From the NCBI GenBank assembly GCA_046761065.1, contig JBHIFL010000054.1, forward strand, positions 1 to 27,975: DNA of 27,975 bases. The letters run 5' to 3'. This DNA is from Candidatus Heimdallarchaeota archaeon. GTDB taxonomy: Archaea > Asgardarchaeota > Wukongarchaeia > Wukongarchaeales > JBHIFL01. Below, piece after piece: positions 103 to 18,735 of this stretch (position 1 is the stretch's first letter; every line of letters starts with the position of its first letter). The notes beneath the pieces were generated by a model. The model had not been told where the DNA came from and ran no database searches. It saw nothing but the letters and a program-made list of their open reading frames with translations. A program made the position numbers and the translations under genes.

Positions 103-1536
103 CTAGAGTGGAGGAGACTTATTACGTAATTCAGGCGTGGCCTTTTCAAATGCATAAGCCATTTTGAGTAAAGCTGGCTCACCTAATTTTGGGGCCATGA
201 ATTGAATGCTCAACGGCAAGTTATCATTACTGTATCCACAAGGAAGAACGATTGTTGGTATTCCTGTGATGTTTCCTAGTCGGGTAAAGTGAGTACAACC
301 CGATATGACATTAATTTTTGTGGAATTTATAATAACTGTTTTTTCTCCAATTTTTGATGGTCGAATTTGAGTCGGAGGCGACATGAGAAAATCGACTTTT
401 TGGAATAAGGTCTCACATTCACGAAGGATAACTTCCCGCGTTCTTATCGCTCTAATGTATTCATCGATTCGAATATTCTGACCCGCCCTAAATCGTTCTA
501 TCACATTTGCCCCATACCTATCCGAATATTTCGCTAGGAGTTCAGTATGCTGAACCGCCGCTTCTGCTAAAAGGATGGTTGACGAAGCATCCTCAATCAT
601 GTTTGCAGATGCCAAGCGCACATCGAGAATTTCTCCCCCTAAACGTTCAATTTTCGAAATTGCGGTCTTGAAGGCTCTTTCTACCTCAGAGTCTAAAGGT
701 GTAGGGTTTAAATCCTTGGAAATCGCAAATTGAACTCCTTCTATAGTGGCATCTGCAAAACCGTCACGATAATTGGGAACTGGAGCCATAAGGCTGCGCG
801 GATCGTCTTCATCAAATCCCGCTAAAACTTGAAGCAAGATGGCAGCATCCTCCACAGTTTTTGTGATTGGGCCTACATGATCTAAACTTGTTGCAAGTGG
901 GAAGACTCCTTGTAGGCTAACTCGACCATAGGTTGGCTTAAGTCCGACTAAGCCACAAAATGCCGCTGGAATTCGAATGGATCCCCCGGTGTCAGATCCG
1001 AGCGCTGCGAAGCAAAGATGGGCTGCTGTAGCGGCCGCAGATCCTCCACTTGATCCTCCAGGAATAAGATCAAAATTCCAAGGATTTCTCGTAGGACCAA
1101 AATGTAGATTATTTGTTGTGATTCCTAGAGCAAATTCATGAGTGTTTGTTTTAAAAAAGGGGATTGCACCAGCTCGTTTCAGCCGTTTGACTACCATTGC
1201 ATCCTTATTAGGAATATTATTCCTGTATATGGCAGATCCGTATGTGGTGACAATCCCTGCAGTGTCGATAAGATCTTTAATGCCGATCGGAATCCCATGA
1301 AGGGGACCTCGATACTTACCAACCCGAATCTCCTTTTCAGCTTTCTTTGCAGCTTGTTTGACTCGATCAAAATCTATTGTGACAAAGGTATTCAATTTAA
1401 TATTTAGCTGTTCAATTCTAGCCAATAACTGTTCTACAAGTTCAACGGGAGAGATCTCACCTGTTTTGATTTGTTCAGATATCTTGGCGATGCTAAGAAA
1501 AATTGGAACATCCGCCATTGAAATCATCTCGTCCAA
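103..1536 (-). CDS. Amidase signature family protein (GatA/AtzE-like amidase)
   Basis: Amidase signature motifs: GPLHGIPIGIKD (catalytic Lys), PGGSSGGSAAA and LGSDTGGSIRIPA (Ser-cisSer-Lys triad). The start may be the TTG at 1536 or a Met a few codons downstream. No gatB/gatC is adjacent, so it is not called gatA. Confidence 0.9.
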   Translation of the reverse strand: MDEMISMADVPIFLSIAKISEQIKTGEISPVELVEQLLARIEQLNIKLNTFVTIDFDRVKQAAKKAEKEIRVGKYRGPLHGIPIGIKDLIDTAGIVTTYGSAIYRNNIPNKDAMVVKRLKRAGAIPFFKTNTHEFALGITTNNLHFGPTRNPWNFDLIPGGSSGGSAAATAAHLCFAALGSDTGGSIRIPAAFCGLVGLKPTYGRVSLQGVFPLATSLDHVGPITKTVEDAAILLQVLAGFDEDDPRSLMAPVPNYRDGFADATIEGVQFAISKDLNPTPLDSEVERAFKTAISKIERLGGEILDVRLASANMIEDASSTILLAEAAVQHTELLAKYSDRYGANVIERFRAGQNIRIDEYIRAIRTREVILRECETLFQKVDFLMSPPTQIRPSKIGEKTVIINSTKINVISGCTHFTRLGNITGIPTIVLPCGYSNDNLPLSIQFMAPKLGEPALLKMAYAFEKATPELRNKSPPL

Positions 1537-7970: not shown

Positions 7971-8142
7971 AGTTTATCACATCTTTTACTTGAATCTAAC
8001 CTATTCTAACTATGTTTTTGCAGGAGGTATGCATTATCATTACCTGTTTGACACTTAGACGCCCTCAGGGGCGTGGAGGAGCAATTGTGCATGAATGAAT
8101 AAAAAGCAACTGACCTGTAAGTATTTAGTGTTCTATATGTAT

Positions 8143-9606
8143 CTAAGTAACTAACTCCTCATGTGCCTGCCTTACTAGATTGTCAAGTTCCTCGCGAACA
8201 TCTTTGTCGAGGGGTTCCGGATGATGTTCTTTGAGGATTTCTTTTGTTACCTCTCTTGCTCTGTCTGCAATGTCCCTCTCACCTAATTTCATCCACTCAT
8301 CCGCACTATTTCGTTCACTAATTCTGTAGTCTGGCATCCAATGTTCTCCTCTTCTAAAATAATCCCGTGTATGGGGTTGAGCCAGAAAGGTTCCACCCTC
8401 AAGGTTTGTAACGTGTTCTATCACATCTAGAGCTAGAGCATCATCATCAATCGGAAAGATAGGAGTCCGTAATGTACGGAAGATCATCCCAAAAAGCTCA
8501 TTGTCGATAACAAGTTGTTCATAGCTGCTGGTGTCGCCTCCAAGTAGCCCCATCCCAGAAATGAAATTAGCACCTGTCAATGCCGGAAGAAGTCCATTAA
8601 ATGCTTTTTCATAACCGACCTGAGCATCTGGCAGCTTAGCATCGGTGGAAACACCGTAAACATCGGAAGGCAAGTTGTAATATTGGGCCAATTGAACTGC
8701 ACAAGCGCCCATGATTCCCAACTCTGGACTTCCCCAACAATTGAGGGCTGTTCGCATATCCAAAGTACTTGCACGCGCCGCATAGATTACTGGAGTCCCA
8801 GGATTTACAATTTGAACAATTGTTAGACCGGTTAGAATCTCGGCATTTTGCAATACCAACATCCCAGCTAGTGTCATTGGACCAGACGCACCAGAAATTG
8901 GCGCAGGCAACATCCCTATAGGTAGACCATTTTTAGCACACACATGGATAGCTTGTGATATCTTTTTTTCAAATTTCAAAGGACTAACCGGTGAAATTCC
9001 TGGTTGGGGCCATGGGTTTTTACGGAACTCCTCTGCTCCAGCACTAACAAGGACTCCCATTCGGATGAAGAATCTAGCTTCCTCCGCGGAAGAGATCGTG
9101 TTAAGATAAACCGGTTTCATAGTATTCTCAATCATTTCTTTGAGGCTTATAATCGAGATCAAGGCTGGAGGTACATCACTACATGTTACTAGGGGCGAAC
9201 AAGCATCAACTTGTTTCAAAGCATCCATGAGCCGCGTAGTCTCTCGTATGTCCTGTTGTAGCCCTTCTCTTCGCTTTTCATTATCAGGATCCACAATATA
9301 TGTAGTTGTGCCTCCATTATGGGTATACACTCTTTTTCCTTCTAATTTGACACATTTCTTGGGATCTCTTCCATGAACCTCCAATCTGCTTGGTGCTTTT
9401 CTTATACATTCCTCCACTAAATAGTCCGGTAGCTTTGCTTTCCGTGTTACATAGTTAACAATGGCTCCTGCGGCTTCAAGGTCACTAAGTATCTGTTCTT
9501 CATCAATGAATACGCCACGTCCGAGCAAATCTAGAGTGGCGAGATGCAACTCATAAATATCTTCCTGACTCAAAATCTTTAGCAACCCGCCCTTTAAGAT
9601 GCTCAT
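8143..9606 (-). CDS. Trimethylamine methyltransferase (MttB) superfamily corrinoid methyltransferase, non-pyrrolysine
   Basis: Motifs LKILSQEDIYELHLATLDLL, SPVSPL, SGASGPMTLAGMLVLQNAEILTG, DMRT, GSPE, DAQVGYEK and SYEQLVIDNE. No in-frame TAG, and Ser occupies the Pyl-equivalent site (GVSTDAK). ATGA overlap with the upstream corrinoid gene. Confidence 0.93.
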   Translation of the reverse strand: MSILKGGLLKILSQEDIYELHLATLDLLGRGVFIDEEQILSDLEAAGAIVNYVTRKAKLPDYLVEECIRKAPSRLEVHGRDPKKCVKLEGKRVYTHNGGTTTYIVDPDNEKRREGLQQDIRETTRLMDALKQVDACSPLVTCSDVPPALISIISLKEMIENTMKPVYLNTISSAEEARFFIRMGVLVSAGAEEFRKNPWPQPGISPVSPLKFEKKISQAIHVCAKNGLPIGMLPAPISGASGPMTLAGMLVLQNAEILTGLTIVQIVNPGTPVIYAARASTLDMRTALNCWGSPELGIMGACAVQLAQYYNLPSDVYGVSTDAKLPDAQVGYEKAFNGLLPALTGANFISGMGLLGGDTSSYEQLVIDNELFGMIFRTLRTPIFPIDDDALALDVIEHVTNLEGGTFLAQPHTRDYFRRGEHWMPDYRISERNSADEWMKLGERDIADRAREVTKEILKEHHPEPLDKDVREELDNLVRQAHEELVT

Positions 9607-17184: not shown

Positions 17185-17193
17185 CACCAATGA
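17185..17193 (+). repeat. Left target-site duplication CACCAATGA (9 bp)
   Basis: Identical to 18727-18735 and directly abuts the left TIR. Confidence 0.95.
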
Positions 17194-17215
17194 GGTATTT
17201 TTCACATTTCGGGGA
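17194..17215 (+). repeat. Left terminal inverted repeat GGTATTTTTCACATTTCGGGGA
   Basis: Exact reverse complement of 18705-18726. Confidence 0.95.
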
Positions 17216-17274
17216 GGGATGGTAGCAACCGACAAAAATATCCTTGGAGGGGGATTTGGTTGCTCTGATATACC

Positions 17275-18687
17275 ATGAACAAAACAACCCCCACTCTCCA
17301 GGGATGGCTCCGCTTGGCCATCTCAGAGCCAGCTCCTTCTGGCACGGCGCAGCTTATAAGTGTTTTCATTCGGTTTCTGATTAAATGTCCCAATCCCGCC
17401 TGTCAGTCCTCTGCCATCTGGAAAGACGGCCGCGATGCCTCCCACAGCCAGCGCCCCCAGCGCCTGGTCTGCTCCCAGTGTGGTAAGCAGTTTTATCTGC
17501 ACACCTCCTATGTCTTCCACGTCCTGAGCCAATCTCTTCTCGATGAGCTCCTCGATGCCGTCCTGCGGCAAGGCACGCCCCTTGCGGCCTTGGCACAGCA
17601 GTACCACGTCTCCAAGGCCTTTCTTTCCGGTCTAACTCAGCGCCTGCGCGAATTCCTCCAGGAGCGCACCACGCGGGCCAAGAAGGCCCTGGCGCGGACG
17701 AAACTCCGAAAACAGCTTCCAGAGAACCTGAAACACGTTGTCTACATGGATGAGACCTTCCTGCGGATCGTCGGGAAGCAATTCAAATTGATTCTCGCCA
17801 TTGACTCCTCAGGCGCCGTCTTGGGCTGGGTATTGCGCCCGACCCGTACGGCAGCGGATATCAAAGCCGTTTTAGAGCAGGTTTTGGCTAGAATAGGACG
17901 GATTGCCGTCTTGATCACCGATGGGTTCAGCAGCTACAAGACCGCAATCAAGCACCTGCGACTGAGCCTGCTTCACATCCGCCACCTGCACTCCCACCCC
18001 TGGCGGGACGTCCACCTGACCGCTTATGAGTACTGGCCAAAAGAACGCCTCATCCAGGAGGTAACAGTTGGCATCGCCTATGATGCGTTTACTCGGCCGG
18101 GTTCGGCCTTTGGGAGGGTCTTCACCCAAACCCGGCGGGTGTCCGGGCCCGGCCGGGGTCCAGGCCGGCCCCAAGGCGCCAAGGATAAACAGGCCCGACG
18201 GCGCCGGAAACAGGCCACCTCCTCCCCCAAAGGGGCCCCCAAGACCAACAGCCAAAAAAGAGGACCGAAGAACGTTTTGGAGGATGGGCGCCTCTTCCAA
18301 TTTCACGTGGAGCCCTCCGAGCAGGTGCTAGAGCTGGAGGGGGCCGCCTTGGGGCGCTCGGAGGAGCTTGGGGAGGAGGTGGGGCGGGGGGAAGTCCTTC
18401 GGCTCCTGTGGACTGCGGCCTGGCTCTTTCAGTGGAGTTATGTGACGACTAATCTCATCGAAAGGCTGATCAGTCAGATCAAGCTCCACCTCCCCCAGCG
18501 CGGGCGGAACTCGGAGGAAGCGGTGAAACGGCGGGTCGAGGCGATCCTAGCCTACCCGGAGGTCCCCGAAGGAACAGACGAAGCAGAGGAGCTGGGGCTC
18601 TTGCCCACGTTCCCCCACTTAGGGTTTAGAAACCTGGGAGCGTTTATCACCCCCCAAATCGAGGCGATGGAGGTGATCCGGGCCTAG
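17275..18687 (+). CDS. DDE transposase with N-terminal Zn ribbon and HTH
   Basis: CPNPAC...KDG...QRLVCSQCGKQF (InsA-like Zn ribbon), an HTH-like LAALAQQYHVS, YMDETF (D159), LITDG (D216) and TTNLIER (E396). Confidence 0.9.
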   Translation: MNKTTPTLQGWLRLAISEPAPSGTAQLISVFIRFLIKCPNPACQSSAIWKDGRDASHSQRPQRLVCSQCGKQFYLHTSYVFHVLSQSLLDELLDAVLRQGTPLAALAQQYHVSKAFLSGLTQRLREFLQERTTRAKKALARTKLRKQLPENLKHVVYMDETFLRIVGKQFKLILAIDSSGAVLGWVLRPTRTAADIKAVLEQVLARIGRIAVLITDGFSSYKTAIKHLRLSLLHIRHLHSHPWRDVHLTAYEYWPKERLIQEVTVGIAYDAFTRPGSAFGRVFTQTRRVSGPGRGPGRPQGAKDKQARRRRKQATSSPKGAPKTNSQKRGPKNVLEDGRLFQFHVEPSEQVLELEGAALGRSEELGEEVGRGEVLRLLWTAAWLFQWSYVTTNLIERLISQIKLHLPQRGRNSEEAVKRRVEAILAYPEVPEGTDEAEELGLLPTFPHLGFRNLGAFITPQIEAMEVIRA

Positions 18688-18704
18688 AGGGGCCTTTTTG
18701 CCTA

Positions 18705-18726
18705 TCCCCGAAATGTGAAAAATACC
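18705..18726 (-). repeat. Right terminal inverted repeat TCCCCGAAATGTGAAAAATACC
   Basis: Exact reverse complement of 17194-17215. Confidence 0.95.
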
Positions 18727-18735
18727 CACCAATGA
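18727..18735 (+). repeat. Right target-site duplication CACCAATGA
   Basis: Identical to 17185-17193. Confidence 0.95.

Follow-up and report, generated by a model that had tools for sequence, protein, structure and literature searches.

The window analysed here comprises positions 1 to 27,975 (the whole 27,975-nucleotide stretch) of contig JBHIFL010000054.1 from the Asgard archaeon Candidatus Heimdallarchaeota archaeon, and contains a complete insertion sequence that carries one long transposase gene (Table 1). The G+C content of the element is ~59%, versus ~40-46% in the surrounding contig. It is neighboured on one side by a divergent MttB-family methyltransferase gene and on the other by a Liv-type binding-protein gene. 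The encoded protein combines an N-terminal zinc ribbon, a helical region and an RNase H-like core, and the core is divided by a large insertion domain from which a basic loop with two AT-hook-type motifs is predicted to protrude.

Table 1. Features of the insertion sequence, with positions in the window (aa, residues of the transposase)
Feature	Position	Strand	Basis or remarks
Target-site duplication, left copy, 9 bp, CACCAATGA	17185..17193	.	Same as 18727-18735; abuts the inverted repeat
Complete insertion sequence, 1533 bp	17194..18726	+	Ends are perfect 22-bp inverted repeats, flanked by a 9-bp direct repeat
Left terminal inverted repeat, GGTATTTTTCACATTTCGGGGA	17194..17215	+	Positions 3-9 and 13-16 form A/T tracts
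Transposase gene, 470 aa (P0001)	17275..18687	+	Zn-ribbon/HTH/DDE layout, from translation
N-terminal zinc ribbon, aa 36-74, C38/C43/C66/C69	17380..17496	+	Weak InsA and IS1-IS1595 Zn-ribbon matches; short modelled beta-strands
Helical (HTH-type) region, aa 79-147	17509..17715	+	Modelled helices 79-97, 103-110 and 114-147; layout as in IS1/IS6 profiles
RNase H-like core, part 1, beta1-beta5, aa 155-238, with D159 and D216	17737..17988	+	Model, fold matches, conservation
His cluster HIRHLHSHPW, aa 234-243	17974..18003	+	End of beta5 and entry of the insert
Insertion domain, aa 239-392	17989..18450	+	AlphaFold models of the whole protein and of the insert alone
Disordered basic loop, aa 289-333, with both hook motifs	18139..18273	+	Low pLDDT
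GRP core of first AT-hook-type motif, G297/R298/P299	18163..18171	+	Translation, family alignment
Second basic motif KRGPK, aa 328-332	18256..18270	+	Full second RGRPKG hook in some relatives
Helix alpha4, N393/E396/K403, motif N-x-x-E-x6-K	18451..18489	+	Modelled helix 393-405; carries the predicted catalytic Glu
Right terminal inverted repeat	18705..18726	-	100% complementary to the left repeat
Target-site duplication, right copy, 9 bp	18727..18735	.	Matches the left copy

In a family alignment of 38 relatives, which share 20-30% identity with the window's protein, D159, E160, D216, R298, E396 and G410 are invariant (38/38), a pattern that goes beyond chance. The initial annotation had named D159, D216 and E396 as the catalytic triad, with about 180 residues between the second Asp and the Glu, and the alignment bears this out: the codons lie at 17749-17751, 17920-17922 and 18460-18462, the D-to-E spacing is 180 aa in this protein, and across the family it ranges from 157 to 191 aa. 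The opposing arrangement, a catalytic Glu close to D216, was not found, E396 being the sole invariant acidic residue after D216 in the 38-sequence alignment. That E396 is non-catalytic, the true third acidic residue lying near D216 and the "insert" being a C-terminal accessory domain, is a very improbable reading; it draws on D270 (D in 25/38), where alone, in the stretch from D216 to E396, a further acidic residue occupies at least 50% of a column, and on the Pfam and NCBIfam IS6/IS1 profiles, which end at ~aa 235. Against it, the N-x-x-E-x6-K helix around E396 (N393 in 36/38, K403 in 30/38) is typical of this transposase clan and fits the E--F---K signature of archaeal IS6-like transposases (PMC6807381), and integrase and transposase cores superpose on the model on both flanks of the insert. 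The whole-protein AlphaFold model (pLDDT 80.6) adopts an RNase H-like fold, for which Foldseek returned integrase, Mu and Mos1 cores at E 5e-5 to 1e-3, and VIA gave Z scores of 9-11 to retroviral integrase cores and 8.6-9.8 to TnsB, IstA and Mu. The protein is thus an RNase H-fold DDE transposase with three invariant acidic residues, on beta1, after beta4 and on alpha4, and an extra domain between beta5 and alpha4.

The division of the core is evident in the model, in which beta5 (residues 232-238) is followed by ~150 residues of sheet, helix and loop before alpha4 (393-405) begins. Integrase cores span model residues ~150 to 432 in the VIA comparison yet align over 125-148 residues, the insert being skipped. 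The interval described in the initial annotation as a large insertion domain, 17992-18429 (aa 240-385), falls within the insert as we delimit it (aa ~239-392), the residues and motifs listed there match the translation, and the domain interrupts an IS6/IS1-like DDE core between beta5 and alpha4, the canonical place for such insertions. The predicted order of strands followed by a helix also holds in both AlphaFold models, with strands at 245-254, 259-268, 276-288, 339-346 and 351-355 and a helix at 371-384. In these models a small antiparallel beta-sheet and one helix make up the insert, and a disordered basic loop of ~45 residues protrudes from it. The His cluster had been assigned to the insert and its conservation proposed as informative; it is indeed conserved (H237 in 35/38, H239 in 37/38; family consensus HIxHIHSxP) and marks the entry to the insert, but part of the cluster (H237, H239) is the conserved end of the core strand beta5 and does not belong to the insert.

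No described domain was matched by the insert, whether by sequence (Pfam) or by fold (VIA-align, Foldseek, ESM Atlas), in keeping with its earlier designation as undescribed. When the insert alone was compared by VIA-align with 48,161 PDB representatives, there was no convincing match; the best was the acetyltransferase RimL (Z 5.3), followed by a polo-box, a sulfatase C-terminal domain and other generic sheet-plus-helix folds, and no transposase appeared among the top 50. Foldseek found no PDB match to the insert at E <=1e-3, the ESM Atlas yielded no convincing match (TM <=0.41), and neither the protein nor the family profile retrieved a solved transposase from the PDB sequences. A missing fold match does not prove a new fold. 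The Pfam matches of the insert collected at E values up to 10, among them DUF4687 (E 0.008) and TAF1D, were set aside as chance-level and driven by composition.

Comparison with curated profiles places the family near IS6/IS26 and IS1, with scores below the thresholds of both. Among the profiles, IS6/IS26 (archaeal 'IS6-like'; DDE_Tnp_IS240; NF033587, NF033588) matches best, over beta1-beta5 (aa 139-235), with Pfam DDE_Tnp_IS240 scoring 45.6 bits over aa 156-235 only; the IS6 NCBIfam model is matched by 37/38 members (best E 3e-16), none reported above threshold. The family shares with IS6/IS26 a DET motif at the first Asp. In its ends the agreement is mixed: terminal inverted repeats (TIRs) start with GG, as in IS6/IS26, in the window's element and in several subgroups, and with GAG in other relatives, and target-site duplications (TSDs) have the 8 bp of IS6/IS26 in relatives but 9 bp in the window. 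In IS6 transposases the D-to-E spacing is a few tens of residues, far below the 157-191 aa of this family, and an IS6 element measures ~0.7-0.9 kb. Further differences are the score of 55.3 bits against a cut-off of 125, with profile positions 4-85 of 139 matched, and the ~1.5-kb element (1533 bp), whose transposase carries AT-hooks within the core and a Zn ribbon at its N terminus; archaeal IS6-like elements, which share the E-x-x-F-x3-K motif, are 789-880 bp long (PMC6807381). The IS1 profile (NF033558) covers aa 41-227, beginning in the ribbon and taking in the second Asp, and the order of Zn ribbon, HTH and DDE domain, the 9-bp TSD of the window's element and ends beginning GGT are all IS1-like. 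The match reaches only 33.7 of the 100 bits required, however, the gene is a single long ORF with no frameshift, and the insert is large; the IS1 model matches 24/38 members weakly. The IS1 family includes the archaeal ISMhu11 subgroup (ISfinder), on which our literature search returned nothing; the separation from IS1 stated here is that from the NCBIfam profile. No family member reaches a curated NCBIfam IS-family threshold.

An insert between beta5 and the Glu-bearing alpha4 is likewise found in Tn5/IS4, Hermes/hAT, RAG1, the P element, piggyBac and IS256 (ISCth4) (PMC8230255), and that of Tn5 is also beta-rich. The whole model scores lower against Tn5, ISCth4 and Hermes than against plain integrase cores, with VIA Z scores of 7.9 for Tn5 (1mm8; rmsd 5.3, 174 residues aligned), 8.0 for ISCth4 and 7.1 for Hermes, and the insert alone gave no transposase among its top 50 VIA matches. 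To our knowledge, none of the insertion domains of these six groups has been reported to carry an AT-hook.

The most distinctive part of the insert is the Gly/Pro/Arg/Lys-rich segment (aa 291-332). In both AlphaFold models aa 289-333 are devoid of secondary structure, with pLDDT values of 50-61 as compared to 85-94 in the flanking strands. The initial annotation had named conservation of the GRP loop, GRPxGxKD in this protein, as a check of its proposal, and the homolog alignment shows the loop to be conserved: beside the invariant R298, the alignment has G297 and G301 in 36/38 members each, N/D304 in 34/38 and K303 in 32/38, the motif being absent from two of the 38. Across the family the first motif has the consensus KRGRPKGSKN, and behind it comes a second one, KKRG(P/R)K, in which K328 (32/38), R329 (33/38) and G330 (31/38) are well conserved. 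RGRPKGSKN-type strings occur in most full-length relatives, with one to three hooks per protein and three tandem copies in one. The window's own copy is degenerate (PGRPQGAKDK), P296 replacing the first Arg (R296 in 26/38 members); it does have R294 and a tail rich in K/R. The replacement leaves this copy with a weakened hook.

The AT-hook is generally seen as a motif of eukaryotic chromatin, and the RGRPKGSKN(K/R) consensus is the sequence of HMGA1 hook 2. When the loop of one family member was searched against the whole PDB, HMG-I(Y) AT-hook 2 (2EZD) was the only match, with KRPRGRPKGSKNK identical (E 3e-4), which gives this member 13/13 consecutive residues in common with human HMGA1 AT-hook 2. 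The family profile also matches HMGA1 hook 2 in the PDB. Pfam AT_hook (PF02178), a model of ~13 residues that is seldom significant alone, matched 1/37 inserts, at E 2.3. Hooks of the HMGA/CarD type are disordered segments that bind in the minor groove of AT-rich DNA (PMC8156234), and the present loop resembles HMGA1 and the HMGA-like CarD domain of Myxococcus in its disorder and in its repeated hooks, one to three in this family, with basic spacers. They differ from it in that their hooks form a stand-alone architectural protein or a tail at the C terminus, whereas here the hooks sit in the catalytic domain of an enzyme, and the window's copy reads PGRP rather than RGRP. Taken together, the alignment and profile comparisons support the loop as a signature of the family and a putative textbook AT-hook at the family level, more so than in the window's copy.

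It is unlikely that the loop is instead a generic disordered polycation, with non-specific affinity for DNA or the nucleoid, or with a role in protein contacts, regulation or NLS-like targeting, the beta-sheet being the functionally important part of the insert. Such a tether would agree with the low-complexity spacer between the two motifs, which varies in length and sequence among relatives, with the residue at position 299 (P in 27/38, K in 11/38, so that GRK stands for GRP in 11/38 members), with the missing first Arg of the window's copy and with the insignificant Pfam AT_hook scores; moreover, Myxococcus CarD tolerates the exchange of its hook domain for other disordered domains of basic character (PMC8156234). 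A near-invariant G-R-x-x-G-x-K-(N/D) at 20-30% overall identity would be unexpected of a tether, as would 13 consecutive residues of HMGA1 hook 2. The suggestion that the basic tract is a nuclear localization signal is unsupported, and no sign of import of the nuclear type was found in the host; we put it aside as less economical than DNA binding, a DNA-binding AT-hook being the simpler account.

If the loop is a minor-groove reader, the DNA that it reads could be the target. We compiled nine TSD-flanked insertions from eight genomes, representing three subgroups only, and accepted element ends only where a TSD or a comparison of copies confirmed them. The restored sites ranked between the 67th and 99.9th percentile for AT content (mean 93rd; 8/9 at or above the 91.6th) among non-coding windows within ~9 kb, percentiles that, like the combined p-value, are approximate because the non-coding mask was crude (ORFs of at least 120 aa masked) and the windows overlap. 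TSD lengths in the family are 8-9 bp, the 9-bp duplication being that of the window and the 8-bp ones those of relatives, whose TIRs start with GG or GAG, and 10 TSDs of the family are ~80% A/T. Three metagenomic relatives with conserved TIRs had no matching TSD and were left out of these statistics; their assemblies may have joined flanks of different copies. Target sites across copies are AT-rich, in line with the earlier proposal, but the window's own TSD is only 5/9 A/T. An AT-rich target preference is known for IS1, an insertion sequence with no AT-hook, so AT-rich siting need not stem from the hook. The site composition is nevertheless consistent with a hook that steers integration to AT-rich DNA.

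These observations suggest a tentative model, to which we give a probability of about 0.45, in which the hook or hooks of the Asgard transposase insert capture or hold target DNA and bias integration to AT-rich intergenic DNA. The structured sheet would set the tether beside the catalytic pocket, as do the insertion domains of Tn5, Hermes and RAG1; the hooks would enter the minor groove of A/T-rich DNA beside the active site; and, if this DNA is the target, its capture would favour integration into the intergenic stretches richest in A/T, which are of promoter type. In other transposases, residues essential for DNA handling reside in the insertion domain (PMC8230255). The same hook or hooks may also, or instead, read an A/T tract in the element's own ends, and the invariance of R298, equal to that of the catalytic residues, makes a role in end recognition or in chemistry equally possible.

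Binding of the hooks in the minor groove of A/T tracts a few base pairs inside each TIR, where they would aid recognition, bending or opening of the tip for cleavage, is a possibility to be taken seriously, if not one that we would presume. The TIR tips of the five element groups examined (GGTATTTTTCACATTT in the window, and GGKTAATTTTAYA, GAGTTATTTTAAT and GAGAATTTCTTAATTCC) have G-R-K-W-W-W-T-T-T in common, and a second A/T tract is usually present within the first 16 bp; two hook motifs and two A/T tracts occur together. In the window's clade the TATTTTT tract is retained in an element of ~59% G+C, and the 22-bp TIR is essentially unchanged on elements whose transposases are only 67-85% identical; the invariance of R298 would fit an obligatory step. 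The TIRs are non-coding sequences in AT-rich genomes, however, in which A/T tracts are partly expected, the comparison covers only five element groups, the N-terminal Zn-ribbon/HTH region already supplies an end-binding module, and end binding alone does not account for the AT-rich insertion sites. GRP-centred motifs that read a recombinase's own A/T-rich sites are known from the GRPR-type arms of Tc1/mariner transposases and Hin and from the GGRPR of the RAG1 nonamer-binding domain; those motifs lie in N-terminal DNA-binding regions, whereas the present one lies in an insertion domain of the DDE core.

The family was found in 51 of 400 Asgard genomes, in a search confined to the host phylum, and is so far known almost only from Asgard archaea, the genomes searched being Asgard genomes. 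A genome search with a single peptide pattern, which under-samples the family, gave three Hodarchaeota matches; tblastn against plasmids gave none; and among the matches listed by a family-profile search of protein sequences there was only the close clade. Protein-cluster names for 10 relatives gave a single 'transposase-like protein' and nothing more. The curated NCBIfam models do not name the family, and its genes are therefore labelled only 'DDE domain' or 'hypothetical' in Asgard annotations. Our literature search found no paper linking AT-hooks to the core of an IS transposase or to Asgard insertion sequences, and an AT-hook loop within the catalytic core was not found described for any known insertion-sequence family.

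Insertion domains endow DDE enzymes with special abilities: Tn5 forms hairpins, the P element is under the control of GTP, and RAG1 handles DNA in a zinc-dependent manner. An insert with a conserved, predicted minor-groove reader would link a short motif to target choice or end recognition, and an insertion sequence that seeks AT-rich promoters can turn adjacent genes on or off. The AT-hook is typical of eukaryotes and the hosts are Asgard archaea, so the family offers a data point on pre-eukaryotic use of this motif. The most far-reaching version of the proposal, that canonical HMGA-type hooks, up to 13/13 residues identical to human HMGA1 hook 2, act within a DDE catalytic domain as a selector of AT-rich promoters, is a long shot. 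If true, it would establish a previously unrecognised mode of target selection for DDE enzymes and place the AT-hook on mobile elements already in the closest archaeal lineage of eukaryotes, where such elements would be a possible source of eukaryotic AT-hook proteins.

The plus strand of the window carries a complete IS element, whose translated ORF places D159, D216, E396, the His cluster HIRHLHSHPW (234-243) and a Gly/Pro/Arg/Lys segment (291-332) at the residues reported in the initial annotation (Table). Its G+C content (~59%, versus ~46% in the immediate flanks and ~40% in the whole window), together with perfect terminal inverted repeats (TIRs) and an intact target-site duplication (TSD), indicates that it came in very recently from a donor richer in G+C. 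The element occupies an AT-rich spacer between divergently transcribed genes encoding an MttB-family protein and a Liv-type binding protein. The host genome contains this one full copy and the terminal part of a diverged second copy at a contig edge (L002, G000:C87, 52-281; 230 nt at 85% identity, its 22-bp TIR unaltered), and further copies may be hidden by assembly gaps. The first MttB-family ORF of the window (8125-9606, minus strand) matches the Rfam mttB pyrrolysine insertion element PYLIS_3 with 60 bits at 8550-8649 (minus strand). Reading TAG as a residue in this ORF affects the natural stop alone (5 codons before the end), and the usual Pyl position lacks an in-frame TAG, so the match is due to coding-sequence homology and this MttB appears pyrrolysine-free.

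Coordinates of the IS element in the window (nucleotides) and of structural units of its transposase (aa)
Feature	Position	Strand	Description
Transposase ORF	17275-18687	+	470 aa; contains 17992-18429; sole long gene of the element
IS element	17194-18726	+	1533 bp, TIR-bounded
TIRs	17194-17215 and 18705-18726		perfect 22-bp inverted repeats
TSD CACCAATGA	17185-17193 and 18727-18735		9-bp direct repeat directly abutting the TIRs
N-terminus			Zn-ribbon-like (AlphaFold2 model)
Three helices	aa 79-147		AlphaFold2 model
RNase H core	beta1-beta3 155-188; alpha1 193-207; beta4 212-216; alpha2 219-227; beta5 232-238		AlphaFold2 model
Separate unit after beta5	strands 245-254, 259-268, 276-288		AlphaFold2 model
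Low-confidence loop	aa 289-333		AlphaFold2 model
Post-loop part of insert	strands 339-346, 351-355; helix 371-384		AlphaFold2 model
E396 helix	aa 393-405		downstream of the whole insert (AlphaFold2 model)

The element is a member of a coherent, so far unnamed Asgard IS family whose N-terminal half is related to the IS6/IS1 clan. The Pfam DDE_Tnp_IS240 match is confined to aa 156-235 (profile positions 4-85 of 139), and even the highest-scoring NCBIfam models stay well below their cut-offs: IS6 with 55 bits against 125 (aa 139-235), IS1 with 34 against 100 (aa 41-227, covering the Zn ribbon), and ISL3 and a Zn-binding IS256 variant lower still. HMMER, run exhaustively over 1.84 billion representatives, returned 154 clusters at E <= 1e-3, about forty of them full-length (420-480 aa) and aligning end to end at 24-35% identity over the matched stretches; a subgroup of 500-650 aa (P0018, P0024, P0028, P0029 and P0034) carries 50-100 or more extra N-terminal residues before the Zn-ribbon/HTH/DDE module. 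In the ESM Atlas, the closest clusters come from archaea, with Promethearchaeota the most frequent. Of 400 Asgard genomes from 85 genera, 51 genomes (29 genera) match the family profile, and a pattern scan covering 185,579 species, each represented by one genome, confirmed three loci, every one in a Candidatus Hodarchaeota MAG. The contigs of that scan recur among the genomes assigned to the phylum of the window (L003 = L007), which makes the host an Asgard archaeon. A literature search found no description of the family or of an AT-hook within a DDE core. DDE transposases that contain insertion domains are already known; what distinguishes this family is a beta-rich insertion domain, with no fold assigned, that bears canonical AT-hooks.

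In a 38-sequence alignment of the family, D159, E160, D216, R298, E396 and G410 are invariant, and F162, L172, R191, H237, H239, G297, G301 and N393 are conserved in at least 90% of members. The Asp residues are separated by 56-59 aa and D216 from E396 by 157-191 aa throughout the family, and the only other column in the latter interval that is at least 50% acidic is D270 (Asp in 25/38). E396 lies in the motif N-x-x-E-x-x-(F/N/I)-S-x-x-K, which agrees with the E--F---K signature of archaeal IS6-like transposases (PMC6807381). This conservation, spacing and motif make a catalytic Glu close to D216 very unlikely.

An AlphaFold2 model built on the alignment (mean pLDDT 80.6) places the insert at the predicted beta5/alpha4 junction, the canonical insertion position in DDE transposases (PMC8230255). 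Foldseek matched only the first ~90 core residues of the whole model (retroviral integrases, Mu, Mos1). Exhaustive structural alignment gave Z scores of 9-11 to integrase catalytic cores, with 125-148 residues aligned over a span of model residues ~150..432, so that the alignments recognise the core on either side and pass over the insert; Tn5, ISCth4 and Hermes scored below these plain integrase cores on the whole model (Z 7-8), and the insert may yet be related to known insertion domains. Modelled alone (pLDDT 79.8), the insert had no convincing relative among 48,161 PDB representatives (best Z 5.3), no Foldseek match at E <= 1e-3 and no ESM Atlas match above TM 0.41. The fold comparison proposed in the initial annotation upholds, in the model, an extra domain at this position, and offers no convincing relative for it. 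Of the His cluster (family consensus HIxHIHSxP), earlier assigned to the insert, H237 and H239 instead form the end and exit of core strand beta5, the last stretch still aligned by the IS6 profile.

By sequence, the basic loop consists of an array of AT-hooks. Its family consensus is (K/R)-R-G-R-(P/K)-K-G-S-K-(N/D), followed by 20-30 K/R/E-rich residues and K-K-R-G-(P/R)-K, the second motif being a full RGRPKG in several relatives. R298 is present in 38/38 sequences, G297 and G301 in 36 each, N/D304 in 34, K303 in 32 and R296 in 26, with Pro (27) or Lys (11) at position 299; the homologue alignment proposed in the initial annotation shows the GRP loop, H237 and H239 to be conserved. Hook copy number ranges from one to three: in P0053, a fragment of 280 aa retrieved among the representatives, three KRKRGRPKGSK(K/N)K units follow one another in tandem. 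A PDB-wide search with 30 loop residues of one member gave a single match, the second AT-hook of HMG-I(Y) on DNA (2EZD/2EZE), with KRPRGRPKGSKNK identical (E 3e-4), and the family profile retrieves the same chain from the PDB. The Pfam AT_hook model, at 13 residues too short to do so, did not reach significance on the inserts. Both AlphaFold models predict the loop to be disordered, a property it would share with the hooks of HMGA and CarD (PMC8156234). The window's own clade (five proteins, 67-100% identity) has a weakened hook, G-R-G-P-G-R-P-(Q/R/P)-G-A-K-D-K, in which Pro takes the place of the Arg in front of an intact GRP core; the label "AT-hook-like" is correct, and fits the family better than the window copy. 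Support for an NLS is limited to the basic composition of the stretch.

Either target DNA or the IS ends could partner this ~45-residue tether beside the active site, and both may do so. The window and eight further genomes yielded ten insertions with intact TSDs (CACCAATGA, TTTTAATC, GAATATTC, TAAAAATC, GAAATTTA, AAATTCTT, CAAATTTT, GAAATTAT, CTTATTAA and TCTTTTCG; ~80% A/T when pooled). At the first eight, A/T makes up 77-95% of the 30-bp flanks on both sides, versus 54-73% in the surrounding kilobases. Nine restored empty sites fall at the 67th-99.9th AT percentile (mean 93rd; 8/9 at or above the 91.6th) of non-coding windows within ~9 kb, a control that uses a crude non-coding mask and overlapping windows. 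Survivorship alone should not concentrate elements where spacers are richest in A/T and most promoter-like. These sites are consistent with the AT-rich targeting proposed earlier, of which the hook may be the cause. We favour, with a probability of about 0.45, target capture, in which the hook would hold A/T-rich DNA beside the active site, presumably through the minor groove, because target enrichment is the sole quantified signal and is predicted by the known biochemistry of the motif.

That the hook instead reads A/T tracts in the element's own ends is somewhat less probable, given this enrichment, and stays a close rival because R298 is invariant and Tc1/mariner, Hin and RAG1 provide precedents for end recognition. 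The TIR tips of all five element groups examined also share G-(G/A)-(G/T)-W-W-W-T-T-T, a family-specific pattern, and most have a further A/T tract ahead of position 16. The GC-rich window clade preserves TATTTTT and ATTT tracts in a 22-bp TIR that has hardly changed, at transposase identities of only 67-85% (L036, L037 and L038, encoding P0003, P0006 and P0004). These three loci, on metagenomic contigs, have no matching TSD, possibly because the assemblies join flanks of different copies.

The insert with its conserved AT-hook motif is a correct and non-random observation. Other Asgard genomes commonly hold decayed copies next to intact ones, either fragments or copies interrupted by one to three in-frame stops (for example L007 in G060, L011 in G135 and L019 in G158). 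The complete 4.36-Mb Asgard genome G135 holds three copies by family profile. Its related IS, with TIRs beginning GAG and 8-bp TSDs, is present as two identical 1461-bp copies (L039 and L040; G135:C1:1439508-1440968 and 1562097-1563557), alongside a truncated copy and another that is 74% identical. This genome would be a convenient natural system for study of the family.
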